Source of the DNA: Monocercomonoides exilis PA203
Taxonomy: Eukaryota; Protista; Preaxostyla
NCBI GenBank assembly: GCA_001643675.2
Contig: LSRY02000019.1
Span: 496,001 to 560,000 of the forward strand
Reading direction: 5' to 3'
DNA length: 64,000 nucleotides
Of the stretch, positions 742 to 62,653 are shown one piece after another. The notes below the pieces were generated by a model. That model saw only the letters and a program-made list of their open reading frames with translations. It was not told the DNA's origin and searched no databases. The position numbers and the translations under genes are program-made. Positions within the stretch are counted from its first letter, which is position 1. Each line of letters opens with the position of its first letter.

Positions 742-3700
742 CTACTCCCTCCCCCTCTTGCTCTGTTTTCGGGGGGTTCTCGATCGGGTCTTCTGTACCT
801 GAGCGGGCATGACAATTTGTCCTATGCTTCTCTCTCCGCGTTTCCTCCGATCGGTCTCGAGTTTCTTCTGCAAGGCAGGTTGTCTGCCCTCCGCCAGCTC
901 CATGATGCTGCGGGGAATTATGGAAGGTGTCTCATCACCCCTGGTGGGTTGTGTTATATCGTCCTCATGATGCGAACTCTTCTCTCGAGTCGACCCTCGT
1001 CTCTTCAAATTCTTTCTCTCGCTCGTCTCCGCTTCTCCCCCGGATTGTGATGTTTCTTCCGGATACTCCTTTGTTTCAGATTCTGTATTCTCATTTGAAA
1101 TCTCTTTTCCTTTGCTGTCCTTCTCAGACTTTCCTCCCTTCTCTGCCAGGGGTACTGGGCCACCTATTGTCTCCAGGATCCATCTCGTGTCCTGAACTGG
1201 TAACACGGTGTAATACTCCTGGGCTGCTCTAGAGCCTGGCGCCCATCTCGCGTACGCATTGATTGCTTTCCAATCTGCATCTTGTTGTCTTGCTAAGTGT
1301 GTTATCACAGCGTGTCTTATCGAGTACGCGGTAAATGTGTCGTGTATTCCGTTCTCTCTCAGGACAGCCACTAATTCTTCTTTGATCCTCTGCAAGTTTG
1401 CAGGTTGCCTCCCCCTGAGATCGAACCACACATGTTCGTCTCTAAAGGTTGTCTTTATATAATCCATCCAGCGTTGGAGCGCTACAACCGCATCGATACG
1501 TGGGTTCGGATGCTTATTTATAATAACCTTAACAGTCTCTCCCCCTGATGTTTTCGTTCGTCCTTGTGTCTGGACTAAATCCTCTTTAAGTATCGTTGTC
1601 CCTCTTCTCATCCTCTCCAGCTCTGCTGGTCTTAACGCACCAAATATCATAGTTAAAATTAGAGCCCTCCTTTGGAGGGTCTGTGGGTCTTTCATATCGT
1701 GAGTGGCCTCAGCCCATTTCGTGATGATTGTCAAGTCCCACATCGATTTGTATCGTTTGCCTCTTCTTGGTTTCTCCCCCACATAGGTCTTTAGAAATGT
1801 CTCTATGTCTTTCACGTCAACCTTAGTCTCTCTGAAGAGGTTAATAGAATCCAGCACCTTCCGTACTGTCTGATTTATCACTCCACTTGAGAGGTTTGTA
1901 TTCGCAAGTGTTTCGATGAACTCTGCCATAATCCATTTAGCATCTTTCGTTGTGAGGGGGTCAGTGTCATCCATGCTCTCCTTATCAAGGAATTGTTTGA
2001 ATCTTCGCAGGGCTCTCCACGTATCTCTCTCACTCTTCTGATTTCTAAGTATTGCTGCTGCTATGTCTTTTGCTCCAACGTGTTCTCCCCATGTTAAGAA
2101 GAGGTCTCTCCCCTGAATATTCTCTTCTCCAGTATAACGCTTATTACCTCTCCTGGGGGTAATTTCCAGCCTTCCCTTCTCATCTTCGTTCCCGGTGTCA
2201 TGCACTCCTGAAAGGTCCCCAGGGTCTTTGTCAAATGCCCAGGCTGCAGTAGCGGGGTCCAGGTCTGCCCCCGCCAGTCTGGCAGAATCAGAATCGTTAG
2301 TTCCCTCTGGGCTTCCTTCATCTTCTCTTTCAACACACGTCCAATATTTCTCAGGAACGGGTGGACTAGCACTATCTCGTTTCCTTGCATTTCTCTCCCT
2401 CTCTTCTTTCTCAGAGAGGATAGTCTCCAAGAACATCCGCAGGGCACTGGCGCAATCGGTTCTGAAATTGTTTCTAGTGTTTTCGGTGCGATTGTCTGTA
2501 ATATCTCTGCAACTTTCTCTCCCTTCAGTGCGTAGTCCGGCTTCTTCGCCATCCAGCTGAGTGTATCTGCTTCTGTGTTTTGTTCTCCCGGGAAATGTTC
2601 CGTCTGTGTTGTAATGTCCAGGCTGTTCAGCTTCTTCTCTAATGCTCTCAGTGTTGGGATGAGTGATGGCGCTCCCCTCTTCTTCTGTATTGTCCATCTG
2701 GTGGACATGTTGTCTGTCTTCAGACGAATATGGTCTATCTTCTGTTGTTGCAGCCATGCTTCCTTTTTCTCTTGAGCCCTCAACACTGCCCTGGACTCCA
2801 TCTCGTTTATTGCAAGCGTGCTTTCCTGGAGGGCCCAACTCCCGTGGACATATATTTTCTCCTCTTTGTTCTCTGTTGGTATTGTTAATACTGCACCCCA
2901 TCCCAGCTCCGAAGCGTCCGTTGTTAGCTCTGCTGGTCTGTTCCTTCTCCTCAGACTCCTTGGTCTGTTCTCTCGCAGAGTTTTCCTCCAATGTGTTAAT
3001 TCTCCTAACATCATTGGGTTGGGTATCACTGTCCCGTTCCAGCCTCCGCGGGCTATTGCATGCCTCAGCACGTATTGCATGCGCTTCATCCACAAGCTCG
3101 CTGGTGGGTGTTGTAACCTCACAAAATTCAGCCTCCCGAGGGGTGCTGCTAAGTCCCTCGTCTTTTGTCTCCTTCTTTCCTTTGCATGTGCTATCCATTT
3201 TCGCACATCCTCCAGGAGCAGCACTCTCTTCCTTTCTTGGAGCTTCACTTCCATTTTTTCCGAGTTCCAAAGCAATCACAGGAACTCCACGCTCCTTGCG
3301 GGTTCTAGCTTCAGCTTCTCCTCCGACAGTATCCAGCCCAGATTTCTCAGGAACTGGGCTATCTCCTGTGAGATCGATCTCAATGCATCCCTGTCTGGGT
3401 GCATGAGGAGGATGTCGTCCAGATATATCACCAGCTTTACCATCCAATGTTCTCTGATATATGACGCTGCCCGTCTCATTATCTTCGTGAATACTCTGGG
3501 CGCGTCCTTTGCTCCAAATGGCATCCCCACGTAAGTGTAGCATTGCTTTTGGAAGCTGAAGCACAGAAAGGGACTGAACTGCTCGTCCACTTTGACATGT
3601 TGATAAGCACTCGATATGTCGAGCGTGGTCATCCAATCGTTCTCCTCCAGGAGTTCCACAACTGTCTCCTGGGAATCCATCTTGAAGTGTTTCCCTAGCA

Positions 3701-3936
3701 CTTCCTCGTTTAAAATTCTGCAATCCAGGATCTTTCTCCACTTTCCGTTCTTCTTCCGGACCATAAATGTCGGGTTGAACCACTTTACCTCCGACTCCTG
3801 TATGGGTTTCACCACTCCTTCTTTCACTTCCTCCTCTAAGAGGGATAAATAATTGTTTGTCATCTCTGTTGTTCCCCGAAATTCTTGTCTGTGTTTTCTC
3901 TCCTCGAGTGAGATTGGGGATTGGGGACTCATCCAT
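742..3936 (-). CDS. Tyrosine recombinase ORF; YR domain in the C-terminal part, N-terminal part overlaps pol in another frame
   Basis: Motifs GALRPAEL (R), TKTS (K), YSIRH (HxxR position), ARW (W) and EYY (Y) in integrase order. Confidence 0.9.
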   Translation of the reverse strand: MDESPIPNLTRGEKTQTRISGNNRDDKQLFIPLRGGSERRSGETHTGVGGKVVQPDIYGPEEERKVEKDPGLQNFKRGSARETLQDGFPGDSCGTPGGERLDDHARHIECLSTCQSGRAVQSLSVLQLPKAMLHLRGDAIWSKGRAQSIHEDNETGSVIYQRTLDGKAGDISGRHPPHAPRQGCIEIDLTGDSPVPEKSGLDTVGGEAEARTRKERGVPVIALELGKNGSEAPRKEESAAPGGCAKMDSTCKGKKETKDEGLSSTPREAEFCEVTTPTSELVDEAHAIRAEACNSPRRLERDSDTQPNDVRRINTLEENSAREQTKESEEKEQTSRANNGRFGAGMGCSINNTNREQRGENICPRELGPPGKHACNKRDGVQGSVEGSREKGSMAATTEDRPYSSEDRQHVHQMDNTEEEGSAITHPNTESIREEAEQPGHYNTDGTFPGRTKHRSRYTQLDGEEAGLRTEGRESCRDITDNRTENTRNNFRTDCASALRMFLETILSEKEERERNARKRDSASPPVPEKYWTCVEREDEGSPEGTNDSDSARLAGADLDPATAAWAFDKDPGDLSGVHDTGNEDEKGRLEITPRRGNKRYTGEENIQGRDLFLTWGEHVGAKDIAAAILRNQKSERDTWRALRRFKQFLDKESMDDTDPLTTKDAKWIMAEFIETLANTNLSSGVINQTVRKVLDSINLFRETKVDVKDIETFLKTYVGEKPRRGKRYKSMWDLTIITKWAEATHDMKDPQTLQRRALILTMIFGALRPAELERMRRGTTILKEDLVQTQGRTKTSGGETVKVIINKHPNPRIDAVVALQRWMDYIKTTFRDEHVWFDLRGRQPANLQRIKEELVAVLRENGIHDTFTAYSIRHAVITHLARQQDADWKAINAYARWAPGSRAAQEYYTVLPVQDTRWILETIGGPVPLAEKGGKSEKDSKGKEISNENTESETKEYPEETSQSGGEAETSERKNLKRRGSTREKSSHHEDDITQPTRGDETPSIIPRSIMELAEGRQPALQKKLETDRRKRGERSIGQIVMPAQVQKTRSRTPRKQSKRGRE

Positions 3937-5378
3937 CGTGCTTTAATACCACGGCTCACTAATTTGTCTCCCCCAATCTTCCTCCACTCGTTCAGCCTGT
4001 TCACCAGTCTCCCAGGAAGTGGCTCCTTCGGTGGTCCCACTGCTACGCAACTCCCCACTTCTGGTGTCCTTTGACCAGTCTGTATCTGTGCGGTCTCTTT
4101 CCCTTCGAGAGTATCTGCAGTAGCTATCTTCCAGCTCTCCTCCAGGGCGCTCCCAATTAGGGACTCGATAACAGTCCCAGAAGCTCTCAAGGCTCTCTTC
4201 ACTACCTCCCTCTCGGGTTCCTGATCGTTCATCTGTACTGTCCCGTGGGGATATACGGAGTCTTCCTCTGTGTTTTCTCTCCTTGTTCCCCTCTCGCAAT
4301 CTATCGAGCTTTCTATCTCTATCCTCTTCTTTTGGTCGGAAGAGCTCAATGCCTCTTCGTTGCTCTCGCAGACTTCCCAGGGTTCCTCCCCTGTGCTTGT
4401 CTGTCTATTGATTGGGACCTCCCGTAGTACTGTCATTCCCCTGAACTCTGACAGCGTCATGTCCGTCCATGTCTCGCGGCGAAGCGCGGCTCTCTCTTCT
4501 CTCTCTGTCTCGCGGCAAAGCGCGGCTCTCTCTTCTCTCTCTGTCTCGCGGCAAAGCGCGGCTCTCTCTTCTCTCTCTGTCTCGCGGCAAAGCGCGGCTC
4601 TCTCTTCTCTCTCTGTCTCGCGGCAAAGCGCGGCTCTCTCTTCTCTCTCTGTCTCGCGGCATAGCGCGACTCTCTCTTCTCTCTCTGTCTCGCGGCAAAG
4701 CGCGGCTCTCTCTTCTCTCTCTGTCTCGCGGCAAAGCGCGGCTCTCTCTACTCTCTCTGTCTCGCGGCAAAGCGCGGCTCTCTCTTCTCTCTCTGTCTCG
4801 CGAAAAAGCGCGGCTCTCTCTTCTCTCTCTGTCTCGCGGCAAAGCGCGGCTCTCTCTTCTCTCTCTGTCTCGCGGCAAAGCGCGGCTCTCTCTTCTCTCT
4901 CTGTCTCGCGGCAAAGCGCGGCTCTCTCTTCTCTCTCTGTCTCGCGGCATAGCGCGGCTCTCTCTTCTCTCTCTGTCTCGCGGCAAAGCGCGGCTCTCTC
5001 TTCTCTCTCTGTCTCGCGGCGAAGCGCGGCTCTTTCTACGCCCACTGGCTCGTACCAGAAGCTGTTCCTGCTGCTGATTCTCCCTGTGTCCTCGGGGAGG
5101 CTGGAGGAAGGGGGACTGTGAACGAGGGGGCTCTCCCAGCTGTTGCTGGGGCCTGTTGTGGTCGAGTTTGTGTTGACCTCCTTCTTTGTTTGAAATTTGA
5201 GAAGCTTCCTTCGAAACCTTGCTTCTGGAATTGTCTGTAGGCAAAACCTTGAGCGTTCCTGCCTGTGCTGTACCTCCCTGAGCGCCCGCCCCTGACTGGG
5301 GCGAGGCCGAAGGTTGTGGGAGAAGCGGGGGATGCTCCATATCCTGGAGCATCCCCCCCTGGACGAAAAAAGCTGGTG
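2094..5378 (-). CDS. pol: reverse transcriptase, RNase H and methyltransferase-like domain; one in-frame TGA at 3276-3278
   Basis: RT: WRKILDCR, LDISSAYQHV, MPFG, YLDD. RNase H: TTDASELGWG, INEME, KTDN, NTEADTLS. MT-like: LILPDWRGQTW. ORFs 3276..5045 and 2094..3275 share a frame, which stays open up to the TAG at 5379-5381. Confidence 0.92.
4471..5035. repeat. 36-bp tandem array, about 16 near-identical units
   Basis: Unit gtctcgcggcaaagcgcggctctctcttctctctct; encodes (EREERAALCRET)n in the pol frame. Confidence 0.97.
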
Positions 5379-6289
5379 CTATCCACCAGTCTCCTGAAAC
5401 TCTCTGGGATGTCCTTGGACATTCCCCCGTCCAGAAAACACTTCACGTTCTCCCAGCTTGACTGAGGGATAACTTTCAGCAAGTTTATGCGGCTAATACA
5501 GTCTGCTATTAGGGCGTACGCGCAAAAGAGCCCCCTCAGTCGCTCTTTCTCTTCTTCCTCTAGGCGCGTCTTTTTCAATTCTCTTGTAGTGAGGGCTGCA
5601 ATCGCCTTCGCGGCTTCAAACCCCGATTCCAGGGCGGGCTGAAGCAGCTCGATAACCCGAGCGGCTTCTGGAGAGTCTTTTCTTCCCTCAGCAGTGACCC
5701 CCGTCACTGCTAAGGCGTTCCAACTGATGTCAGTGTGTCTTGTAAAAAAGTTCTTCTCCGTCTCCGGGATAAAGGTATTCAGGATATCATCATTTATTCT
5801 GATAGATCCGGCTTTGCAAAAGTCCATGAATCTCTTCAGTTCTCCTGCTTGTCTCCTAGGCGTTAACCATTCGTCTGGGAAAATTCCCAAGAAATCTTCG
5901 GATCTATCTTGCTCTTCTTCCCGCTTTTCTGTGTTTTCGGAATCGCTCTCGCTGGTTTCTACATCGTCCCATTTCTTCATCTGGTTACGACCGCGACTGC
6001 CCCTCAATCGCTGTCTGTGTCTCTTCTTTGCGATCATCTCTGTGTCATCAGATTCGGACTCAGATTCGCTTGATCCCGATAGAGATCTTCCTCTTGGTCG
6101 TTCCCTCTTCATCTTTCTCACTGGTAATATTCCTACTGCTCCCGAGCGGCTCGGAACTGCTCGACTTCTCGCCATTTCCTCAATCAAATTTTCTACTCTT
6201 GAAAGTCTAATTGCAAGATCAAATCCTCTGTCCTCGCTGTTACTGGTTTCCATTCTAACAGGATCCTGTGTCATTATTACTGCGGACAA
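5036..6289 (-). CDS. gag-like ORF1 of element 1 (first ATG near 6274)
   Basis: 417-aa ORF just inside the 5' terminus, overlapping the pol frame; assigned by position. Confidence 0.75.
   Translation of the reverse strand: MSAVIMTQDPVRMETSNSEDRGFDLAIRLSRVENLIEEMARSRAVPSRSGAVGILPVRKMKRERPRGRSLSGSSESESESDDTEMIAKKRHRQRLRGSRGRNQMKKWDDVETSESDSENTEKREEEQDRSEDFLGIFPDEWLTPRRQAGELKRFMDFCKAGSIRINDDILNTFIPETEKNFFTRHTDISWNALAVTGVTAEGRKDSPEAARVIELLQPALESGFEAAKAIAALTTRELKKTRLEEEEKERLRGLFCAYALIADCISRINLLKVIPQSSWENVKCFLDGGMSKDIPESFRRLVDSTSFFRPGGDAPGYGASPASPTTFGLAPVRGGRSGRYSTGRNAQGFAYRQFQKQGFEGSFSNFKQRRRSTQTRPQQAPATAGRAPSFTVPLPPASPRTQGESAAGTASGTSQWA
5327..5381 (-). promoter_or_regulatory. Putative -1 ribosomal frameshift signal (gag to pol), element 1
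   Basis: C_UUU_UUU_CGU in the gag frame, 8-nt spacer, perfect 13-bp stem GGGGGAUGCUCCA/UGGAGCAUCCCCC; same layout in element 2. Confidence 0.7.
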
Positions 6290-6320: not shown

Positions 6321-6414
6321 AGTTTGATCTTAAACCACCCATAATTTAAGATCAAACTCATTATTGAGGAGCAAACCTGCTCCTTGCGTTCGTATATTCG
6401 CTCTATTGCGAATT
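6321..6414. repeat. 5' terminal region of element 1 with hairpins
   Basis: 14-bp perfect stem 6321-6334/6345-6358; short stem ggagca/tgctcc at 6368-6383; the last 61 bp match the ICR. Confidence 0.8.
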
Positions 6415-8287
6415 AACTATGAAATAATTATTAATATTTCGAAAAATTAATCTTTTGCATACTCATGCTTTGTTTCTTTTTGAAATTACCTGATTTAAAT
6501 TATTTCAATAATTCTTCGAAGGAAAAGTATAATTCAGTTGAATCAAATGAATAAGCAATTCAATGGCGCAAATTTTAGATTTCTGTATTTTTCTTTTGAA
6601 ATTTTTAAATTGACTTTTTCGTTTAACAATCTCGAGTCTGAAAGAGCATTTTATATGTTTAAATCCAGTTGGGTGGAATTAGATTGATTCAAATTCTGCT
6701 GGCAGGCAATATTGCATTTTTGTTTTTTCGTTGACGGATTGTTTTCTTTTCTTGTGTCTTTTTCGATTTATTTGTTGTCTTTGTGTGTTACTCATCAAAT
6801 AACTTTATTATTTGATTATTGAATTGAATGTTCTGAATAGAAAATTAATCATATAAATATTTTTGAAAAATTAATCATAAAATATTAATCATAAATGTGA
6901 AAAAAGCAAACTTCAATTGAAATCAAGGATCTCACAATATCTTATGTTGAATTATTTTTCTGATGAAATTCTTTATTTGAAGAAAATGAAATTTGTTCTG
7001 CTTAAAGAACTCATGAAATATCCATTGTACAAGTTCAATTCCCTTTTAAGATTTGCGGCTTCAAGCATTGAAATTGTTTTGACAATGCTCGTATCATCCC
7101 ACATCCTCTCATCTTTTTTCTTTAAAAGCATTCCAATTTGCATCCCATAATATTTGAAGAAAACCAATTGGTATTTCAGTCATATAGCTATGATGTTCTT
7201 AGCATTTTATTATGGGGGCTAAATTGTCCAAAAATCTGATGGGATGGGTCATCCTCAAGCCTATTGCTCAAAATCTTCAAAAAAAATATTCGCATGAAAT
7301 TAAAGCAAAAATGGAATAATGTGTGAATATATGAATATAAAAACTTCATGCAAATTTGGGCTCGATATGGAATTCCTGTAAAAACTTAAGAAAAGTCATT
7401 TTCTGACATTTTCCTTGAGCCGCTCTGTAAATTTCGTGAACAGCCTTACTCTTCCCATATCTGCTTCAATGCTCACTGTCTAGTTGCTAATTCCGCAACA
7501 AAGTTGCAAGTCCAGTAGCTCCAGCCTCAAATAAAAAAAGAAAGGCAAAGGAAAGATGTGCCGAAGCTATTTCGCCTAAAAGTATTCCACAATTGAGTTG
7601 CTTTAAAACTGCTTATAGATTACGTGTGAATATTGAATAATGATGATTTCGCAATAAAGGAAGAATATCCTCCAATGCGTTCAAAAAAGACTTCTTGAAT
7701 TGATTTTGTTTTTCTCTTTTTTCTTATGGGGCAATGTTTTTTTCATAAGTTATTTATTTATTGAAAACATTCAAAAAAGCAAACAAAGCCATGAAACAAG
7801 AAAAAACATTTGGGACGAAAATTTTAGCAAATTGAATTATATTTCTATCGCTTTTTTCTTCAATTTTTCTGTAAAATTATTTTATTATTATTATTTACAA
7901 TAATTCATTTGAATGCTAAACTTGTAATTATTTAATATAGAAAATTGTTGGTACAAAGCATGGTTTTTTTGCAAACAAAACAATTTCCCAATCTCAGGTT
8001 CGATAATCCATTTAGCACTTCAAATTGATTATAAATTTATTTTCATAACAAAAAAATGAGTTGAAATTGGAAATGAACAAACAATGTTAATCACTTTTCC
8101 TATTGAAAGGTTCAAAAAAAAATTTTAAATATTTAAGTCATTCAATTATTTTTTCAAAATTAAATTTGACAATACTTTGGAAAAAATAAATATTTTGAGA
8201 AGTGTTAATTTCTAAAAAAAAAAAAAAAAGAAAGAAAGAAAGAAAAAGTTTTTTTTATTGTGAGTGTTGTGATATATTTTGTATCCT

Positions 8288-16208: not shown

Positions 16209-16643
16209 CTTCGGATGTTCCCTTTCAAAAATTCAGTTATATTATAAAAAATAAATATTGAAAATAATTATTTTTCACAATAATTTTTGTATGGGTTTCT
16301 TTTTTTTTTCGTAAAGAATAAACAAAACTACAACACCTCTTGTCATGGGAGTAATTATAGTTGGGAATTGTTATAAATCTGCATGAATATGACTGGTCTC
16401 ACTTGTCTGAACTGTTCTAATTGTGGTATATTTAATTCTGCTGCATTCTCTTGTAGGCTCCACTGTCTGTGCGCTTGGAACTTGAGAGTTGAGTTGGTTG
16501 TTCAGTTCCACAATAGGTGGTCGAGGTAACGCAGTTGTTCTTGAAAAGAGGCTTGTTGTTTCCTGTGAGGCGGAGGCTGGGAGAAATGGTGCTTGGACAG
16601 TGGATGAGCAGTTGGAAGCAACAAGCGCGGTTTGATCTTCCTG

Positions 16644-17885
16644 TTAAGGAGCAATCAGCGCGTGGGCCATGTCGGAAGCAAGGTTGACTCTAAGGAAGGA
16701 GCGCGTTGGAGTGTGAGCTGTCGGGGATAGGCGAGCACGTTTCGCTATCAGCACTTCTCGGACCCCCTTCAAGATCAAGGCGGAAATGGCTGCATGCTTG
16801 ATTGTGTATGGTCTGAACTCCTGTGGGATCCCTACCTGTGTCATTCCGAGTTTTGCCAATTTTCTAATTCCTGAAGTCTTCAGCGGTGTGTGATGCGTCG
16901 TGTTCAGAAGAAATATGTCTCTCGATTCGTTGGTTCTTCGAACTCTTTCCCAAAGGCAGTTGACGGCTCTTGCTGAGCAGATCTTCTCATCAACATCTCA
17001 TAAGAAAGGAATTGTTACGTAACTCAATGGAATGGAAGTTTTCAGGTGAGTGTGGAGGTGGATGAAATCGTTGTTGAAAATGGATTTGCTCATCGATAGT
17101 TGTTCGAGTTCGTGGAAGCGGCATGCTGTTAACAGAACACATAGCAAAATGCACTTCACTGTAAGTTCGAAAAACGATAGGTTAGCATTGCATGGTCGTG
17201 AATTGGAATAGTCAAACACCAGTGAGTGCGACAACATATATGTGTAAGGTTTTCTTGGAACATGGGAACGGTGGAAGGAGTAGAAGATTGTCTTAATAAT
17301 TGGGACTTGCTTAATGTCTTCTCCATAACTAATTCTTGAGAATAGAGAAAATGCAAATCTCGAGGCGCACAAGCATGTGTAGGGGAATCCCTTTTCCTTC
17401 AGTTTGACAAAAATCATGGCACACCTTTGACACCATTCCACGAAGTCTTGTGGAAATTCTCCACAATTTTCCTCCGTCCATGCCTGGGCAAAATGCGCGA
17501 ATCCTAATGTGAAGGCTGTCCAAGTTGAAGTCGATGCACTATTTTTAGCTTCGGTGATTATTGCTTCGGGAACAATGCATCTACGAAGGTCGCTGTTCCA
17601 CCACTGCTCTCCTTTTTGCGCTACCAGTTGAGTCTTGCAGCCAAGAACACCCCCCGGGGAAGTGAAACTCCAGTCTTCTTTGGACCCGGTCCCGCCTTCA
17701 AAACTTTGTTCGAATTGTTTCATTTCATTCAACGTGTTGATATCTCCATAAACAGTTGGATCCAAATTTGGTTCCTCCAAGCTGAAAGATGAATCACTTA
17801 TTTTTCCTGTTCCTCCCGAATCTTCCTTTAGCAATGAAGAATCAGAGGTATTTGGGGATGAACAAGGGTTACTGCTCCTTTCCAT
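16644..17885 (-). pseudogene. Tyrosine recombinase remnant of element 2
   Basis: TACRFHEL, HLKTS and PYTIKHAAIS motifs; broken by a stop near 16998. Confidence 0.8.
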
Positions 17886-19636
17886 TTTGCTTGACGTCCA
17901 TCATCTATCACGTGGCTTCCTGGCCCAAACCAGATTGCAGCTTTGTGGTTTCGTCCGTTCGCGAAGGCATCCTGTTCGATTGTGATGTTCAGTCGTTGTT
18001 CTAGCTCTCTTTGTGCTTCACCTGTAATCTCGTAGTCTCCTGCGCGTTTAGGTTTTGAGAGGGCATCCGCCGTCGTGTTCTTTGCTCCTGGAAGGTGAAT
18101 TGCTCTCAGCTGAATGTTCCATTCTGTTGTCCATTGTCTGATCTTCCTCGTGAGAGACAGGAGATTCTTTCCAGCTGTCCAGCGATTGATGTCGTATACA
18201 ACAGCGGTGTTGTCCGATCTCAGAAGAATCCATCGGGCATTGTGTTTGGCAATGAGATAGAGCAAATGTTTGAGGGACAAAAGGACAGCTAACAACTCCT
18301 TGAAATTGGATGACTGGTTGAGGAATACTCGATTGAAAGCTTGATGGAAGTGGTATAGAGAGCTGCCTATTCAAAGGGTTGCACCACAGGCCCAGTGTGT
18401 AGCATCGGTTGTCAACGTCGCGTCTGGAATTGCAAACAACACCCAAGGTCTTTCCTCCTTCTCTCTCAGTCTCGTTTTCCAATATTGAAGCTGTTTCATA
18501 ATTGAATGATTCAGATTCATCGCACCAGTCCAACCGGTTTTCCTGACTGCATTGTTGAGTTCTTTGAATAATTTATTCATGCGCAGAGAAGCGTCTGTGT
18601 AGACGAATCGAGTTGCGCTGATTTCGCCTTCTGGTGATGTGAACTCTTTTGTCATTATCGGTGTTTCCTTCGATGCCAAACACATCCACCGTTTCATTTT
18701 CTTCTGCAACAAGGACCTGTGCTTCGTCTCCAACGCGACCTTCATAAATTGTGCATTCCATGTCCAACCAAGAAAGGAGAAGATTTTTCTTGGAGTTAAC
18801 CTGCTCTTCTCTTCGTTGACAACAAGTCCGAGATTGTTGAACCAGTGAACGATTCCTGTTGTAGCTTTCAACAAGGCGTCTTTGTCCTCGTGAAAAATGA
18901 TTATGTCGTCGAGATAATTAAAACATCTTTCCCTCCATCTTTTCCTTACCTGCTGCACGACCTTCCTCATCAGCTTTGAAAATATTCCTGGAGCATCTTT
19001 GTAACCGAAGGGGAGACCTTTGAATGCGAATGTCCTCTTTCTGAAGCCGAAAGCAAGGAAGGGAGTGAAATCTTTGTGTACGGGGACATGGATATAGGCC
19101 TGTGAGATGTCTATTGAAACCGCATAATCGTCCTTGCGGAGGAGCTTCTCCAGTGTCTTGTGATCCTCGGATTTGAAGTGAATGTCCTTTATTTCTTTGT
19201 TAAAGGGGCGATGATCGAGGATCTGTCGATATTTCCCGTTCTTTTTCTTTTTGAAAAACAGAGTGTTCAAACATTTTGCCTCTCCTTCTTTGATTTCGCA
19301 TAAGATGTTGTTGGACAAACTCTCCTGTATCCATTTGGCACACTTTTCATCTTCCTTTCTTGTGCCAATGTAGCCTCTTCGCAAATAAACCTCCTTCGTT
19401 AACTTTTCTTTCGCAGATTTTCCTTTCCAAACTGGGCGAACTCCAAACGTTGTTGTGTTCTTAACTCCATTGCTCCTCCATTCCTATGTAAACATCTGAG
19501 TCCTGCCTCCTTTTAAATCTTGGATGTCCCCCGGCTTCGGAACCATTTCACTGTTTGTCACTGTTGTCTGGATGATGTTCTCGTTCGGAACTGGGCAGGC
19601 CCGATGCTTCGGGCCGGAAGCCGAAAAAATCTTCTT
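17600..19636 (-). pseudogene. pol remnant of element 2 (RT, RNase H, MT)
   Basis: IDISQAY, LPFG, YLDD, TTDAT, RSDN, NTTADALS, QDAFA and LVHPQIPLI, with several in-frame stops. Confidence 0.88.
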
Positions 19637-19639
19637 CTA
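19598..19639 (-). promoter_or_regulatory. Putative -1 ribosomal frameshift signal, element 2
   Basis: A_UUU_UUU_CGG, 8-nt spacer, 7-bp stem GGCCCGA/UCGGGCC; pol-frame TAG at 19637-19639. Confidence 0.65.
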
Positions 19640-20208
19640 TTGTAAAGTTGGTACTGCGATGGTTGCGATCGAGCTCTCCTTGCCTCGAGAAATGGTTTGA
19701 ACTTGAACAATTTTTCACTCGAGACAATTGGGTCCTCTGTTACCATTCTAAGCGCTTTAGCTGCGGAGAATCCGTATTCTGCTTAAATCCTAGAGTTCCT
19801 TGCTTCTTGGAGACCCGAAATCACAAGCATCATCGCATTGGATAGTCCTTCCAGTTTCTCCGGCGCATCTGCGTGTGTTTGTATTAGTGCCTTCACTGCT
19901 TGAATTAAGTAGTGTTCAACTCTCCAGCCGCTGGAATTTAGTGCGTCCTTTATCTAATTTGATGGTCTTGCAAATTTGTGAACCTTGGATGGGATTAACG
20001 GTGGGAAGGATAAAAATACAAAAAAAGAAACTAAGTAGGCTATATGGTGTGAGTTGATATTCAGATCAAAAATGGATTCCGAGGTTTCTGACCCAAATAA
20101 TTCTTTGTATAACGTAGCAAAAATATCCTTTCCATTATGGGATGAAGCGGAAGAGGTATCTCCTGATGAAGATTGTGCTGGTTGCAGAAGTGGTACACTG
20201 CTTGAGGA

Positions 20209-20754
20209 TATACCTCTGTGACCTGACAAATAACTTGAAGCCTCGTCTGTCACAAAAAAAAAAGAAAGAAAAAGAAAAAGAAAAAGAAAAAGAAAAAGAA
20301 ATGAAATGAAATGAAAAGAAGAGAAAAGAATAGATTAGAATAGAATAGAATAATAAAATTATAAATAAAATAAAATAAAATTTAAACTAATTAAACGATA
20401 GCTAAAACTTTTAAAGATTTTCAAAGCATTTTGGAAAAGATTTGTTGATAGCATCTGTCATATCTTGTCGATTTTTCTCTTTTGTCAGTGACTGTCAATG
20501 ACAAATTGTGACAAAAATATGCCTCAACTGACATCTCGTGTCAAATAAAATAAATATTGGGAACCTGATCATTTTATTTTTATTTTAATTTTTACAAAAT
20601 AATAAGAATTATTTCATGAAGATTTTCAAATTAATTATTATAGTAATTATGAATTAAAAAATCGTTATAAATAACCCTTTTTGACAAGTCATAAATATCT
20701 TGTCAGTCATTTTGTCATTGTTACAATTTTCTTTTGTCATGTCACAGAGGTATA
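20209..20754. mobile_element. Non-autonomous DNA transposon (hAT-like MITE) nested in the gag region of element 2
   Basis: 22-bp TIRs tatacctctgtgac(c/a)tgacaaa; perfect 8-bp TSD cttgagga at 20201-20208 and 20755-20762; many TGACA/TGTCA subterminal motifs. Confidence 0.9.
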
Positions 20755-21469
20755 CTTGAGGAGGTAGGCTGAGATAAGCCCACGGCGCCCGTTGATCCGC
20801 TGAGCGTAAAAATACTACCCAGTCCAAATCCAGGTCTTGTTGCAGTGTTTTCAATATCTATGATCTGATAAGCGACTGAGCCCTTAATACAGACTCCACT
20901 TCCATGACAAGAGGTGTTGCAGTTATCGTTTGTTCTGGAGAATTAAGGTGCTCTGAACTTTAATTTTCTCTCTCTTCAGATAACAACCACTTTATTTCTT
21001 GTATATTTCATGATTTTCTTTCATTAAAATAGTTATGATTTCGGTTTATGAAGAAGATCCTGGTTTTTCATGATCACTGCCTTTTTTGTTTAATAGTTGA
21101 GATATATGGGACAAAATTTTTTGATTTATGAATTTTGTTCCATTCTGCACATAAAATTAGTTTCTCAATTTTGAAAATTTTCATATGTTTATTTGACATG
21201 AAAATGAAAGTTTCAGTAAAATAAAAGTGTATCGGAACTCCCAATTTTGCACAAAAAAATAGATAAAGTTATTAAGGTCATAAATTGAAATGCTTGATAA
21301 ATTTTCAGTGATTGAAAGGTCTTCCATAGAAGTTAGAAAATTTTGAAAAAGTCAAAAAAATTAAAAATCTATGGTTTATAATCAAAAGAGTTTTATGGCA
21401 AGATCTGAAGATGAAAAAAATAGTTAAACAGCATTTCAATAGAACTCGTTCTTCCATGATATAGAAAAA

Positions 21470-22103: not shown

Positions 22104-23167
22104 TGGGTAAATTTTTTTGAAATCATAACTTTTTTCGGAGTGTGAATAATTAAGAAAGTTTTATGTATTCGAAAATAAAATATTTGTCGAAATGTTTTAT
22201 TCATTTTATTGAATCAAAAGACATTGTTTGATAAGAAAGAAAGACGGAAATGATTTTTGTTGCAGTTATTTCTTTTCTGTGTTCATTGACAAAATTCAAA
22301 ACAAAAATTTTATTCAAAAATTTTTCTTCGAATCAATATTTTTTCAAAAATAATCACTTATATGGGTGATTCTTTTTGAAAAGTCACAAATGTTTAATTT
22401 TCAAATACATCAATAATTTCATATTTTTATGAAATTTTTGTCCGCGAACACCAAACTTCACAAACATGGAATCAATATCTTGATAATGCTATTTCACACA
22501 TTCATGAGAAGATTTGTGAGTGGAAACAGAAAGTTGAGCAAAATATTTTATATTTGATTTATTTGAAAATTAAACATTTGTGACTTTTCAAAAAGAATCA
22601 CCCATATGTCATAATTTTTTTGTAAAGTTCCTTTTGTTTAATTTTCAAATAGAATAAAAATTTCATATTTCAATCAATTTTCTGTTCTCTCTCATGAAAA
22701 TTCACAAAAATGGAAAAAATAACATTGTCAAGTTATTGTTTTAATAACAGCGAAATTTGGTAAGTGGGAACAAAAATTTGATCGAAATACGAAATTTTTA
22801 TTCTATTTGAAAATTAAACGAAAAGAACTTTACAAAAAATTTAAGACATACATATCAAATAATTTTTGGAAAATTAATTTTGTTTAATTACATCTAAAAT
22901 TATTTAAGATTGGGTAATTATTTTTGATGTCATATTTTTCTTTTCGAAAATAACAGTTCTAAAATTTCCCTTTTATATCAACAAAAGAACAATGAAAAAT
23001 AAAGAGGCTTGTTGAAAAGACATCTTCATCTTTATTTGAACAATTTTATTTATTTTAAAGCAGTTGAGATAATATTTTATTTGAATAAAAAATCTTTTTC
23101 CAAAGCCAACCAACCATTGAAGAACAAATATCCCGAAAAAAGTTATGATTTCAAAAATAATCACCCA
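22104..23167. mobile_element. Cluster of four related MITEs (22104-22360, 22363-22604, 22607-22848, 22911-23167)
   Basis: Each has inverted termini (TGGGTGATT...AATCACCCA type, or TGTC...GACA). The first three are separated by single TA dinucleotides. Confidence 0.8.
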
Positions 23168-53700: not shown

Positions 53701-54913
53701 TTTCCAATATACTCAACAGGAGCATTTGTGGAAGAGCGTGTTTGATGAAGGAAAGAAGTGTTGAAAATTAGAGAGAAGTGGAGGCTGTTTTGAGTGGTAA
53801 GGAATGAACGAATCTGGAGGAAGAGAGAGAAAATATTGCAAAAAGGATGGAAATTAGAGGAAACAGAAGAAGAAGAAAAAAGAAAATCAAGTTTGTCAGT
53901 GTCCACGTTGCATTAAGTGTATTTTTGCGGTTATTTGTGTATTAGACATTGAAATTGTTCAGAGCATTTCACTTTTCCTCTTAACATTTTTATCCAAATA
54001 AAAATCGTATCATCTGCGTTTTTTTTTTTTTTTTAAATAAACATAAAAATATAAATGAAACAAACCTTCAACTCACTTTATTCTACATTATTATGTCTTT
54101 CAAGCTCATTTTGTTGTAATTTCGTAACATTTTTAATTAAAATCAAATAGATCAAAGCCGTTTTAAAAATTGAATAACTAATTCTTAAAAAAGCAACACC
54201 AAATGTTCCGATTAGTAATTTTGAAAAATAAAATATTATTTTTCATGGCTTTTTCATGATGGATTTCAGCGTTAATTTGCGTATGTAGTCTTTAATTAAA
54301 ATAAACCAACTTCATTTGAATTAAATGGGTTTATTTGAATTGAAGAAGTTTATTCAAATTTCATCTAATGAATAATATTATTGTCAAATTTGATAGATCA
54401 ATAACAAAAATTCAAGAAAAAACGCCTTATTTCAATGAACCAGAGAATAAACTATTTGCAATTTTTAAAAAAAATAAAATCGAAATGAAATGAAAAAACT
54501 AATTTTTCGATTATAAAAAAAAATTATGATTTTTTTCGTAGTGTGGATTAATTCCAAGAATAAATTTATGGAGAAGAATTATTGCATGGTGTGATAAAAG
54601 TGTTTTATATTTGGGGAAAAATATTTTTCTTCAAGCGTTCACATTGAAAAATTATGCACTTTTCATTGACTTTTTAAGATTAAAAAACACAATAAAAATG
54701 GATATATTTTTTGACATTTGTGTAATGTTTGAAAACTTTTTGTTTTGATTTCAACGATGCCTCCTTACGGATGTGAAAATCCAATTATTTGAAAATCTGA
54801 GAAAGCGAAATAAAGTTATGAGTGAAGCAATTTTTTTGTGCCTTGTGCAAAAAAAGTTTGAAAGTTCGTATTTTCCCCCATTTCTTCTTCTTTTTCTCCT
54901 TTTTCTCTTTATA

Positions 54914-55153
54914 TGGATGATTCTTTTTGAAAAATCACAAATGTTTAATTTTCAAATTCTTCAAAATTTTCATATTTTGCTCAAATTTCTGTTTTAGCTC
55001 ACAAATCTCCTCGAGAATGTTAGAAATAGCTTTTTCAAGTATAAGATTCATTTTAGTGAAGTTTGATATTTGTTTACAAAATATTTAGCAAAATTTGAAA
55101 TTTTGAAGTATTTGAAAATTAAACATTTGTGACTTTTCAAAAAGAATCACCCA
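54914..55153. mobile_element. MITE, inverted homolog of 22363-22604
   Basis: Same TIRs of about 45 bp, TA on both sides; the interior aligns in reverse. Confidence 0.85.
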
Positions 55154-55157
55154 TATA

Positions 55158-55558
55158 CACAGATTTTGCATTTAATGCCGGACATCACACATAATACCGG
55201 ACAAGATCGTTTTCTCAATAACCACTCAAAGAGAAAATCTGATTATATTCCTCTAAATATATCATAACAATACTAACTCATTTGACATACAAAACTTTCA
55301 AAATAGCTTCATTTGTGCTTAGAAAAAAATAATTTTCAAAATCTAGGAAAAAAAGGATTGAGAGTTTCTCCGAGATTACAAAAAATATTTTATAAATATT
55401 CAGCCTGCGCGGAAATGAATATCCGTCATGCCAGATGAGGAAGTGTTGTTGAGGTATATTTGGAAGAATATTATCAGATTTTCTCTTTGAGTGGTTATTG
55501 AGAAAAAGATCTTGTCCGGTATTTTGTACGATGTCCGGCATTTAATGCAATATCTGCA
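55158..55558. mobile_element. Element with about 115-bp imperfect TIRs abutting the MITE
   Basis: 55160-55273 is the reverse complement of about 55441-55555; TA at both outer ends. Confidence 0.75.
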
Positions 55559-56449
55559 TATTAACATTCCAGACAAAAGACAGACTGCAAAGATCTCAAA
55601 TGTCATTTTCATATAATTTAATTGAAATTCAGATTTTTCATGACAAATGCTTTAATCGAAAAACTCACAGTTGAAATGTCGGTGATTATTTTTGAAATAA
55701 AATATTTGGGTGAAAATTTTTGAAAAATCACTTTTTTTTAGCCTGATCTGTCCCACAAAAAATCAAAAACTGTTTTTCATTAACCGTAATTATTTTTTGA
55801 TTTATTAATTCAATCTTTTATCTCACACATAAGCGTTTGACATATTTCAAATTTCAATTGTCATTGTTAACATTTCCTAAATGCTTCAATAATTAAAGTT
55901 TATTTGTATTTATACCTGTTATTTTCCTGCAATGTATTCAACTTTAATTTTCCTTTGTAACTTTTGCAATAAAGCAAGTTTCACTTATATTTTATTTGAG
56001 TTATAACAATAATTATCAATAAAATCTTATTTTGAAATGAATTAATTTTATATTAGCTTAATATTGGATAATATAATATGTTTTATTTAACAATTTTTCG
56101 ACCTTTTCACTTCCAATGAATCCGCAAATACACAATATCAAATTGAAAAGAACTTGTTTTCATATCGATAGAAAAATAATCAATGATAAACGTATATTAA
56201 AGCAAAATAGTTATATTTTCAATAATTGAAATATCTGGTTCATTTTTGTTTTTGTGTTGAATCAACAATTCAAATTCATTGATCTTAGCAGTGTCATTAA
56301 TTTGGTAAATATAAAATTATGACGCTGTAAGGAGCTTGATAATTATGATGTTTGAATTTGAAAAAATGAATATAAATTGAAACAAACAATTGAGTTGAGA
56401 GCAACAGTAAAAACGTGGTTTTATTGTGGAGTTAAGTGATCTGCTGCAT

Positions 56450-58300: not shown

Positions 58301-60560
58301 AAAAAAACGCATTGACTTCTTCGTGTTCGTTTTCGTCATCGGGCGTGGCTAGTTGAGGCATCGCGTAAGATGATATGGAGTCTCTTCTGTGTGTGTGATC
58401 CACAGACACCACAGTCATAGTCGCTAAAGTTATTCTGAGATGAGTTCCAGCTGTCTGGTCGCTGTCTTCCTTCGTTCACATCTGCACTGGAAGTATTCCA
58501 GAGCAAAGATTTCTTCACATTGTGCCTGATTCATCCAGATGTGTGCAATGCTGCCAAGTGCAGATCTACTCTTTTCCTATCACTGAACAGCGCAGTTTTG
58601 AAGACGGTTAGCCGGTGCTGGATGATCAGGTGCAGGTGCTTACGTATGTGTCAGCGGAGGCAGGGATGAAAAGGCGGGTGGATGTGGTGCAGTTGGCGGT
58701 GAGAAAGAAAGAAAGGTGGCGAGCGCTGTTCGGGGTAGTGAGGCTGGCTGTGGAGTTGGTAGGACTGCAGCTGTGAATGAACGAGGTGGAAGGGGCAGTT
58801 TATTTTAAATTTCCACTGAGTAACGGGCAGTGAGTAATGAAGCTTCACTAGGCGATTGTTTGGAACAGAGAGAGAGGAAGGAGCCGATGTATTGCTAAGT
58901 TTTGTCTATATCATCTTCTTTTGTGCAGCTAAAATAGGTTCATTTGAAAGAGAGTGTTTTCGACAGCATGCTGCTGAACATTGAGTGTACATTGAGCGAA
59001 ATTGTTTCTTTGATTTCTCCGTTTTCACAAATATAAGCATTGTCATTTCCTTTTCAGCAGTCTTCTTTTTTGTATTCATCTTCTTTTTCTTTCTTTTTCT
59101 TTTTTCTCTTTTCTCTTCTTCAAACATCCCTCATATTTCTATTTTGATTTTTCATTTTTTTCTTCCTTTTCATTCAAATCATCTCTTTCATTCATATTTC
59201 TTAAAAATGTCTGCTTCTTCGCATTTTTTTGACAGATATCTTCTTCGGACTTATCATCATTTTCTATTTCCCTCTTTTTGTTTATTCATGATTCGTCGTA
59301 TATGTCTTCACAAACCATCAAAGGCCTCCTCTTCTATTCGCTTCAATTTTTGCTCCTTCTCGCTCCTCAACGCGCCACTTCATTTAAAATCCTCAGTTTT
59401 TATAAACGAGTCTGATACGCTCTTTTTCCACATTCCATGTTCATTCATTGGCATTAAATATACCTGTAAAAATATTCTAATTTCATGAGAAAAATTATGA
59501 ATGATAAAAACATTAATGAAAATAGCAAACATATGACTTTTATACAAATGAAATTAAAAAATGTTTTCTTCTCCTCCAAATATCGTCCCTTTATCAAGCA
59601 CAACCCGTCTGTCTCTTCTTCACTTTGCCTTTAATTCCTCAAAAAAATAAATAGCCAAAACCCAATTCTGCTTCCACTTAAATAATCTCCACTAACTCCA
59701 TTCATAAAAAATCGACGACGATGAGGAGGAAGAATAAGATAATTAATTCGAACTCTCAAGTTGATGTTTTTGAAAATTTTCATGTTTGCTAAGCAGATTT
59801 TTAGTGGAAAATGCTTGAATCCATCATTACAGTTTGTTTTCATACAATAATAATAAATGGTGAAGACAAATGTTCAAAGATAAATAAATCAAACCATCTG
59901 AAATATATAAAATGCAAAAAATTTATAATTTCATCATCTGAAACATTCTTTAAATACCACGCTCCGAAATTTCACTTTGTTCTTTAAAAGTTCAATGGAC
60001 AGTTTTCCTACGAAAATCCATCTCTTTTCGCTTTCGGTTATTTCTGTAAAATCATAATTTTTTTGATCTAAATATGAAATATAAATTCAATTTTTTTCAA
60101 GTCTTTAAACATTACCATGATATGTTCGAATAAAATTTCACTCATGGAAAAAACGAATATAAAGCAATTTAATGGAAGAGAACATTGAAAAATAATATTA
60201 TTACGGTATCTTATTTTTGATCTGTGGTGATTTTTCAAAAATTTTCTCCCATTTACTGTTTTAAATTTTTGTCTGAATATTTATTTTGAATATTCATATA
60301 TGAACACTAAATAGTGATGGATCCATTAATTGATCCATTTTCTATTTTTTCGTTCCAATATTTGGCTTTTGGAATAAAAAACATGCATTCAAATTTTGGA
60401 TGAATATTATTTAGCAAATGACGAAAAACCTTTTGATATTCAACACATGGAAAAAAGTTGTGATCTGAAAAAAAAATTACCCATTTGATTTCAAAAAGCA
60501 TTTCATCGATTTTATTTGTGATGTTCAAAGAATTACAATACTCCATTTATTATTTGAATA

Positions 60561-61241
60561 TGGTAAACTTTTTATTCAAAATTAATAAATTGAGTATTTT
60601 TTAAAAAATTTTTTTGTGAAAAATTGGTTTTTTGCTGAATATCAGAAAATATTGAAAATATTATATTCTCTCAATATTCGAAATATAGATGAGAATTTGA
60701 ACCCAGATTTTTATTATTTGTGAATAAACATGAAAATTTCTGATTTTTCAGAAAAAAAATCATCATCAAGGAAATAGGATAATTTTTGAATTATTTCACC
60801 TCACATCGATAAATAATGCATTATTCAACCAAGAAAAGTTGTTTGCATCAATGATACAAACAGAATATAAATGTTTTTCAGAACTGAATAAATCCACGAA
60901 TACAGTTTCTGAATTCTTTATTTGTTTTTTATTGTTTTTCTGAATAAACTTAAATTTATGTAACTTTTCTTGGTTGAATAATGCATTATTTATCGATGTG
61001 AGGTGAAATAATTCAAAAATTATCCTATTTCCTTGATGATGATTTTTTTTCTGAAAAATCAGAAATTTTCATGTTTATTCACAAATAATAAAAATCTGGG
61101 TTCAAATTCTCATCTATATTTCGAATATTGAGAGAATATAATATTTTCAATATTTTCTGATATTCAGCAAAAAACCAATTTTTCACAAAAAAATTTTTTA
61201 AAAAATACTCAATTTATTAATTTTGAATAAAAAGTTTACCA
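60561..61241. mobile_element. Foldback element: about 280-bp essentially perfect inverted arms, 121-bp spacer
   Basis: 60561-60840 is the reverse complement of 60962-61241; atttgaata lies on both flanks (possible 9-bp TSD). Confidence 0.88.
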
Positions 61242-61608
61242 AATTTGAATAATAAAAGGTGTACATTTGTTTTTTCTAAAGAAAAAATAGAAATAATCGT
61301 CAAATGTTGTGTGTCAGAATTTCTATAATTCTTTTCTCATAACAATGCTCGCAGAGAGGAAATCTTGTGTTTATTTGTAATTCTTTCAAAAAATGATTTT
61401 GTATTTCGAGAAAAAATTTATTATCTTTGCAAAATAAACAGTTCATAGCGTTTCACTCTTTTTCTTGGAAATTTTTTCCTCATGCGTGAACTTATCGAAA
61501 AATATTTTTTTGATTCAAATGGGATTATTTTTAGAAATATTTTGAATGAAACAAAATAACTATATGAAGATACTATGATGAAAATAAACAGATATGAAAA
61601 TTGTATTA

Positions 61609-62653
61609 CCATCGTTCTAAAACCCGGACTTTTTATTAAAATTCATATATGTCGACAAATTTCTAAAATTAAATTATGATAATACATACATTCATATACA
61701 GTATATAATACATCAAACCATGTACAAATTTTTATTTGTTGTGCAGTATTAATGAAGAAATAAATAATTTTTATTTTTGAAAATCCGACTTTTGATGAAT
61801 TTTTCTATTTTAATATGACGATTCAGTTCATCTTTTACACATATAACTTATTTTTTCTTTGTTGCAAACTGTTCTGGTTATTTTTCATTTTCGGCAATTT
61901 GCTCCTTCTGACGAAAAAAAAACTATAATTTTTTTTGAAAAATCATTATCAATGGGACAACTAAAAAAATATTTTTTGCAAAACGCAAAAACATACAAGT
62001 GAATTTTACACATGCAATGATAAATATTATGGTTATATAAAATTTCTTTATTGATGAAATTTAAATAATTCAGTCGGTATTTTATAAATAAAGATTATTT
62101 TCATTATTGATGATGTATAATGAACATTTTCATTGAATTTTCTACCAAATTGTATTTAATGAATGAATATAAATTCTATCATAATTTCATCAATAAAAAA
62201 ATTTATATAACCATAATATTTATCATTGCATGTGTAAAATTCACTTGTATGTTTTTGCGTTTTGCAAAAAATATTTTTTTAGTTGTCCCATTGATAATGA
62301 TTTTTCAAAAAAAATTATAGTTTTTTTTTCGTCAGAAGGAGCAAATTGCCGAAAATGAAAAATAACCAGAACAGTTTGCAACAAAGAAAAAATAAGTTAT
62401 ATGTGTAAAAGATGAACTGAATCGTCATATTAAAATAGAAAAATTCATCAAAAGTCGGATTTTCAAAAATAAAAATTATTTATTTCTTCATTAATACTGC
62501 ACAACAAATAAAAATTTGTACATGGTTTGATGTATTATATACTGTATATGAATGTATGTATTATCATAATTTAATTTTAGAAATTTGTCGACATATATGA
62601 ATTTTAATAAAAAGTCCGGGTTTTAGAAAAATTCCCGGGTTTTAGAACGATGG
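61609..62653. mobile_element. Foldback element: about 455-bp near-perfect inverted arms, about 120-bp spacer, TA flanks
   Basis: 61609-62062 mirrors 62183-62653; the right arm has an extra ccgggttttagaa copy. Confidence 0.9.

Follow-up and report, generated by a model that had tools for sequence, protein, structure and literature searches.

DIRS1-like retrotransposons such as DIRS-1 of Dictyostelium have a gag-like open reading frame (ORF), an ORF for reverse transcriptase (RT), RNase H and methyltransferase (MT), and a tyrosine recombinase (YR) ORF, together with inverted terminal repeats (ITRs) and a long overlap of the pol and YR frames, a layout shared, with gag and MT as putative assignments, by the two elements considered here (PMC3266345, PMC5633606 and PMC9210276; all papers are cited for their accessible portions). 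The overlap is a known trait of the group, present in half of 28 elements (PMC3266345). The translation of these overlapping frames goes unexplained in the DIRS papers searched: no translation signal for ORF2 or ORF3, slippery site or stimulator is named in the accessible portions of PMC3266345, PMC6681497, PMC3783388, PMC7192593, PMC5633606 and PMC9210276, and that of PMC5009743 does not mention DIRS. For Ngaro elements, Poulter and Butler (2015), as quoted in PMC13003380, proposed frameshifting from RT to YR; the proposal concerns a short overlap of RT/RNase H with YR in the -1 frame, and the quotation gives no cis signal. The 64-kb stretch of DNA analysed here (the window; positions 496,001 to 560,000 of contig LSRY02000019.1 of Monocercomonoides exilis PA203) carries two DIRS-like YR retrotransposons, E1 (6414-573) and E2 (about 20924-16326), both on the minus strand and both full-length but broken by stops. 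At corresponding places in their gag frames each has a run of six U residues (U6) followed by a hairpin, and we consider it rather likely, from these sequence features, that a hairpin-stimulated -1 frameshift at N_UUU_UUU yields low levels of Gag-Pol.

The cassette is real and non-random. In E1 the candidate slippery run (5366-5371, minus strand, as for all coding features of the elements below) is read in gag as UUU UUU (Phe302-Phe303), with C before it and CGU after it, and is separated by an 8-nt spacer (5358-5365) from a hairpin (5327-5357) with a perfect 13-bp stem (5357-5345 paired with 5339-5327) and a 5-nt loop. The E2 run (19624-19629), with A before it and CGG after it, is likewise read as Phe-Phe-Arg (FFR), and 8 nt past it stands a hairpin (19598-19615) with a perfect, GC-rich 7-bp stem (19615-19609 with 19604-19598) and a 4-nt loop. 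A first-pass annotation of this DNA had described both sites, and its coordinates for E1, the Phe-Phe-Arg readings, the spacers, the two stem lengths, the assignment of pol to the -1 frame and the occurrence of stems of unrelated sequence at the same position were all reproduced. Both stems begin with G-C pairs. The motif TTTTTTCG occurs 14 times in the window, and only at the E1 and E2 sites does a stem of at least 7 bp start 3-12 nt behind it. In each element no other local hairpin is as stable as this one (scanned in segments of 32 nt over 5.8 kb for E1, and of 20 and 32 nt over 3.6 kb for E2), and the fold z-scores against shuffles for E1 are -3.9 and -4.2. Under a Markov model the chance of an in-frame U6 with a 7-bp stem in the 40-codon overlap of E2 is 2e-5 at the exact offset and 1e-4 at offsets of 5-9 nt. 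The recurrence of one geometry, with unrelated stem sequences, in two families so distant that their RTs share 38% identity and their gags give no significant alignment (P=0.2, the best stretch setting both FFR in register) argues for a frameshift. An Rfam search gave five matches, all at chance level.

Two properties of canonical -1 programmed ribosomal frameshifting are found here: a stable structure 5-9 nt downstream (8 nt in both elements) and a -1 ORF open from the site. Before U6, the 301 gag codons of E1 hold 18 stops in the pol frame; the 111 codons past it hold none, where synonymous resampling predicts 3.9 (p=0.011; p=0.005 with upstream codon usage); in the gag overlap of E2 there are none against 2.3 expected (p=0.06). 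The TAG at 5379-5381 is indeed the last pol-frame stop before the site in E1, as first noted, but the same does not hold for E2, where the TAG at 19639 is followed by a further stop at 19486, before RT. Nor is the TAG kept in the E1 family: Glu replaces the TAG-making Asp in 16 of 25 gags, so its spacing is not part of the signal, contrary to the original proposal. The stretch of about 0.9 kb without a pol-frame ATG was confirmed in E1, where the first ATG (4460) lies 906 nt downstream, but about 575 nt of it is a variable tandem array of 36-nt units (4470-5045, about 16 units) between the gag stop and RT. Pol and YR frames are both open through this array, and the number of units varies from about 1 to 16 among E1-family copies.

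In the proposed mechanism, decoding of Phe-Phe would place the base of the hairpin at the mRNA entry channel; the hairpin, 8 nt past the in-frame UUU_UUU_C, would stall the ribosome, and a minority would slip back one base, producing a Gag-RT-RNase H-(MT) fusion beside Gag, probably with low efficiency. Both tRNA-Phe could slip together, in which case the P-site tRNA would move from UUU to CUU in E1 and to AUU in E2 and be mismatched at the first position; alternatively, a single tRNA-Phe, in the P site on the second UUU, could re-pair perfectly while the A site waits at CGN or CAR. Either route would create the same junction (marked by a slash), predicted as ...STSFF/SSRGG... in E1, in a protein of 1393 aa beside the 412-aa Gag, and as ...RRRFF/SASGP... 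in E2. In HIV-1 the -1 efficiency is set by the first 3-4 bp met 8 nt past the slip site (PMC3561942); the P site tolerates mismatches at the first position, and slips of a single P-site tRNA on runs of U have been proposed (PMC3458567).

Paralogs were compared as predicted proteins and as contigs of four DNA runs from one sample. The 25 E1-family ORF1 proteins were chosen by the five residues upstream of the motif, and 20 distinct segments were compared (24 rows, one short row dropped); the sequences are related, and the counts are not independent. FF is present in 24 of the 25 proteins, and the next residue is R or Q in all 25. The motif recurs in paralogs, but not as the invariant U6CG first described: the residue after FF is Gln in 11 of the 20 segments, the G of CG is not kept, and only U6C is. 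The residues of the basal stem are largely retained (G 17, D 19, A 15, A 18, S 20 and P 16 of 20 segments), those of the spacer and the upper stem in only 8 and 9. At the DNA level no variant is listed in the contigs for 5352-5357, and all five loop positions vary; matching depths at 5349 and 5335 suggest one C-G to U-A double change. No change at the third positions of the two Phe codons stands among the differences listed, which seem to leave out those within about 30 nt of the ends of pieces. Deletions in U6 appear in run X1 alone and look like platform error, because X1 also shortens G7 and C5 runs. In the second family, E2 is identical to the intact MONOS_13/P0063 for 23 residues spanning the site; the two share 76% identity upstream, and at a given fixed position such a run has a chance of about 0.002.

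Several points weigh against a -1 frameshift. The slip heptamers are non-canonical: C_UUU_UUU and A_UUU_UUU depart from X_XXY_YYZ, with a first-position mismatch after a tandem slip, and mutants of U6A in which the first base is replaced shift less to -1, those with C least (PMC3458567). The fold z-scores of E2 are marginal (-1.7 and -1.9). U6 alone is not rare: UUU UUU occurs in frame once more in E1 gag, at 5749, where no stem adjoins it; as a signal in its own right this site (region 5694-5749) was rejected, its 11-13 bp hairpin being about 30 nt off, too far, and its -1 frame closing at 5732. A canonical A_AAU_UUC lies near 5198, inside the E1 overlap; it is absent from the peptides of the other subfamily and from E2. 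Of ten stem substitutions in the contigs, five retain pairing and five disrupt it, the pair-breaking changes including 5339 (53% of X2 depth), 5349 G>C (20%) and 5351 (10%). Part of the conservation could come from overlapping coding in two or three frames, and the U tract with CAG in E1 resembles a 3' splice site. Finally, the DNA-level evidence covers two families in one species, with both copies in the window broken.

The YR frame, +1 to gag, also bears on this site. In E1 (742-5442) it opens 71 nt before U6 and runs to the end of the recombinase (Phage_integrase, E 4e-9), except for stops at 4407 and 3945; it has 24 stops before the site and then 2 in 1090 pol codons, against 31.7 expected. 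The corresponding frame of E2 (16644-19739; Phage_integrase, E 9e-6) is decayed and still depleted of stops over pol (9 against 31.7 expected). The PF00589 scores are 36.8 bits for E1, above the curated cut-off of 27.1, and 26.1 bits for E2, just below it. Both E1 stops are private: contigs differ at base 4406, and neither stop interrupts gene models P0067 and P0079, of which P0079 continues in the YR frame to the recombinase end with one 36-residue gap. The first YR-frame stop of E2 (19550) falls where P0063 has Gly and E2 has Val, which implies that this stop, too, is private. Within the gag overlap the openness of the YR frame is significant given the pol residues (0 stops against 3.2 expected, p=0.015) and not significant given the gag residues (0 against 0.6), so the exact 5' start of the frame is not pinned. 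The YR frame seems to open at nearly the same place as the pol frame, and the site may serve two frames.

We tentatively entertain, as a possibility well short of even chances, that one bidirectional slip site feeds Gag, Gag-RT/RNase H/MT and an 1843-aa Gag-YR. In a ribosome stalled by the hairpin, the tRNA-Phe on the second UUU would re-pair perfectly after a shift of one base, either backwards on UUU, into pol, or forwards on UUC, into YR, with a predicted +1 junction of ...STSFF/VQGG... in E1. Such +1 re-pairing on UUU_CGU is the favoured mechanism for influenza PA-X (PMC3498833). Both elements have UUU_C in the zero frame with a +1 ORF opening upstream; the A-site codon, with Gln so frequent among the paralogs, is not a conserved CGN, and this weighs against a +1 slip. 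If true, bidirectional slippage would give a reason for the stop-free frame that extends for kilobases over pol in DIRS elements: it would form a bridge to the recombinase. Tandem -2 slippage into YR was judged unlikely, because a non-U first base abolished -2 shifting (PMC3458567). Canonical pol-frame heptamers near 3714 and 19517 were rejected as pol-to-YR sites, being of chance-level frequency with weak downstream folds, and at 3714 the YR frame is already open far upstream. The frame could also be entered through an ATG of its own at 5352, which lies, like another at 5340, inside the E1 hairpin.

That ATG figures in the main rival explanation, splicing, to which we give a modest chance, somewhat below that of the bidirectional slip. 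The U tract would here be a polypyrimidine tract, the spliced RNA would join an upstream exon to pol or YR or expose the ATG at 5352, and the hairpin would have another role or steer the choice of acceptor. The E1 spacer does contain CAG/G, a possible acceptor 5-7 nt after U6, the FFQ paralogs could, to judge from their protein residues, read U6-CAG directly, and host introns in the window end in a U-rich tract and YAG; however, no AG occurs in E2 until an AAG at the hairpin loop, 16 nt downstream, and no CAG until 32 nt. In the public gene models P0067 and P0079 an intron of 106 nt, corresponding to 5519-5414, links gag to the YR frame, but this intron has a GC content of 48% and a 3' end rich in purines, whereas the host introns are AT-rich, and its acceptor lies elsewhere than at U6. 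At 5352, E1, P0020 and P0024 have Met, but P0067 and P0079 have Thr; in E2 the YR frame lacks an ATG upstream of 19481. Splicing predicts neither an in-frame UUU UUU nor a fixed 8-nt distance to the strongest hairpin.

That ribosomes reinitiate, or initiate internally, at a pol-frame ATG close to the end of gag (4460 in E1, 19546 in E2) and so make pol without fusion appears improbable. This route has a precedent in the reinitiation of LINE-1 ORF2, the pol-frame Met near 4460 recurs in models P0025, P0028, P0031 and P0056, and with a short array that Met would lie about 75 nt past the gag stop (an estimate from P0025), whereas in E1 this distance has widened to about 575 nt. In E2 the ATG precedes the true gag stop (19515) by 31 nt, so that the two families have it on opposite sides of the stop, and the stop-free 111-codon overlap of E1 and the placement of U6 and hairpin are left unexplained. 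We would give just as little credence to coincidence, in which the hairpin serves replication or packaging and FF[RQ] is a protein motif, or to polymerase slippage on U6: about half the Phe codons of these elements are UUU, so that four UUU arise by chance about 1 time in 10 to 1 in 16, the other FF at 5749 is UUU UUU as well, and HIV RT slips at its U6A (PMC5737442), but both families place their best hairpin at an offset of 8 nt (chance about 1e-4), one that suits ribosome geometry, and the U6 deletions have the marks of platform error already described.

By their RT/RNase H, YR and ITRs, as read from the sequence, E1 and E2 are DIRS1-like elements; both have RT/RNase H in a pol ORF, a 3' YR in an overlapping ORF, and ITRs. 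The left ITR of E1 (6354-6414, 61 bp) is a 100% inverted match to the right one (573-633), with loose ends of contigs at 6413-6416 and 6354-6356; the left ITR of E2 (20898-20924, 27 nt) pairs with 16326-16352 at 93% identity. The intact E1 ORF1, a putative gag of 412 aa (5036-6274), is 99% identical to MONOS_13851 and has 27 protein matches, every one named Monocercomonoides exilis. The E2 ORF1, also a putative gag (19513-20861), is 79% identical to MONOS_13/P0063 and broken, with its start codon lost, three stops and a miniature inverted-repeat transposable element (MITE) at 20209-20754. ORF1 has no Pfam match; its one lead, from the Atlas and to be taken as a lead only, is a cluster with 14% PF11560 LAP2alpha, at 0.87, and the AlphaFold model has a pLDDT (predicted local distance difference test) of 34, too low for use. 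The E1 pol frame (2094-5378) encodes RT (RVT_1, E 3e-26) and RNase H (RT_RNaseH, E 2e-8), with one internal stop at 3278, and a putative MT-like tail, so called by motif resemblance; no methyltransferase domain was matched after RNase H in Pfam at E up to 5. The E2 pol frame (17828-19636) encodes RT (RVT_1, E 1e-28) and an RNase H region detected by tblastn to E1 (E 1e-20), with internal stops at 19486 and 18373 and ATGs at 19546 and 19495.

A gag profile search gave 19 matches, apparently all of the same family. No related elements were found in the metagenome search, nor in viral contigs except for one locus (L007, 1185-6188), a Ty3-like element with integrase and with gag and pol in different frames, unrelated to DIRS. 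Six further loci (L001-L006) were dropped as relatives, three having weak RT matches (E 1e-4) and a decayed look, and none showing gag, RNase H or YR matches.

Just outside the right ITR of E1, at 536-580, lies an 82% copy of the ITR, inverted relative to it, and letters like these form the loose ends of many other copies; this stretch could be either an extension of the terminus or a favoured target. Over the E1 ITR (6325-6414) the contigs are about ten times as deep as over the body of the element, depth not being copy number, which suggests many more termini or non-autonomous derivatives. The MITE in E2 ORF1 is 546 bp long and AT-rich, with 22-nt terminal inverted repeats and TA-type ends. 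Inverted repeats with short spacers are found at 61615-62628 (434 nt, 100%) and 60510-61292 (331 nt, 95%), and 22341-22850 and 54892-55561 hold an AT-rich inverted-repeat family that looks related; the long inverted repeats of the window are probably foldback or MITE elements. The window is otherwise AT-rich eukaryotic DNA with intron-split host genes, those between 24786 and 43523 including a D-2-hydroxyacid dehydrogenase, a HECT ligase, a ferlin, a WD40 protein and a protein kinase.

Returning to the proposed -1 frameshift, the cassette can be set beside several described systems. Within the DIRS group itself the two elements differ from DIRS1-like relatives in their short ITRs (61 and 27 bp); exact-word and blastn searches, made in E1 only and with its true right end uncertain, found no internal complementary region. 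A described DIRS frameshift signal was not found in the literature searched, and primary DIRS papers in subscription journals and Repbase, which lie outside that scope, may mention one. The novelty suggested at the outset therefore stands for a DIRS signal in that literature, but not for the general idea, frameshifting in YR retrotransposons having already been proposed for Ngaro (PMC13003380). The two cases share a proposed programmed ribosomal frameshift into a downstream ORF of a YR retrotransposon; E1 and E2 differ in that the junction is gag to pol, that a concrete motif and structure are present, and that the elements are of the ITR type.

If a -1 shift alone is true, gag-pol frameshifting would extend to YR retrotransposons, with a non-canonical slip site and in a metamonad. 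The candidate signal is a defined 45 nt present in two distant families, and it predicts exact junction peptides. If a +1 shift is true as well, one natural site would feed both alternative frames and account for the long pol/YR overlap of DIRS elements. In that respect it would resemble the arterivirus nsp2 -2/-1 site, where one U-rich site gives two alternative frames (PMC4937337, PMC7939443); the arterivirus site is stimulated by a protein, whereas the candidate stimulator here is a hairpin, and +1 fits better than -2. The closest likeness for the +1 direction is to the UUU_CGN class of influenza PA-X, amalgaviruses and fijiviruses, which is matched by UUU_CGU in E1 and UUU_CGG in E2 with a +1 frame open from just upstream (PMC3498833). 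Unlike that class, the preceding codon is UUU rather than UCC, about half of the E1 paralogs have Gln (CAR), and a hairpin follows the site, none being described for the class in the accessible portion of PMC3498833. For the -1 direction the resemblance is to HIV-1 gag-pol, with U6, a simple stem-loop, a distance of 8 nt, strong basal pairs and -1 geometry (PMC3561942, PMC3458567), but in contrast to U_UUU_UUA of HIV-1 the U6 here is in phase as UUU UUU, with C or A as the first base and C after it. On these sequence comparisons the cassette is most likely a new variant of gag-pol frameshifting.

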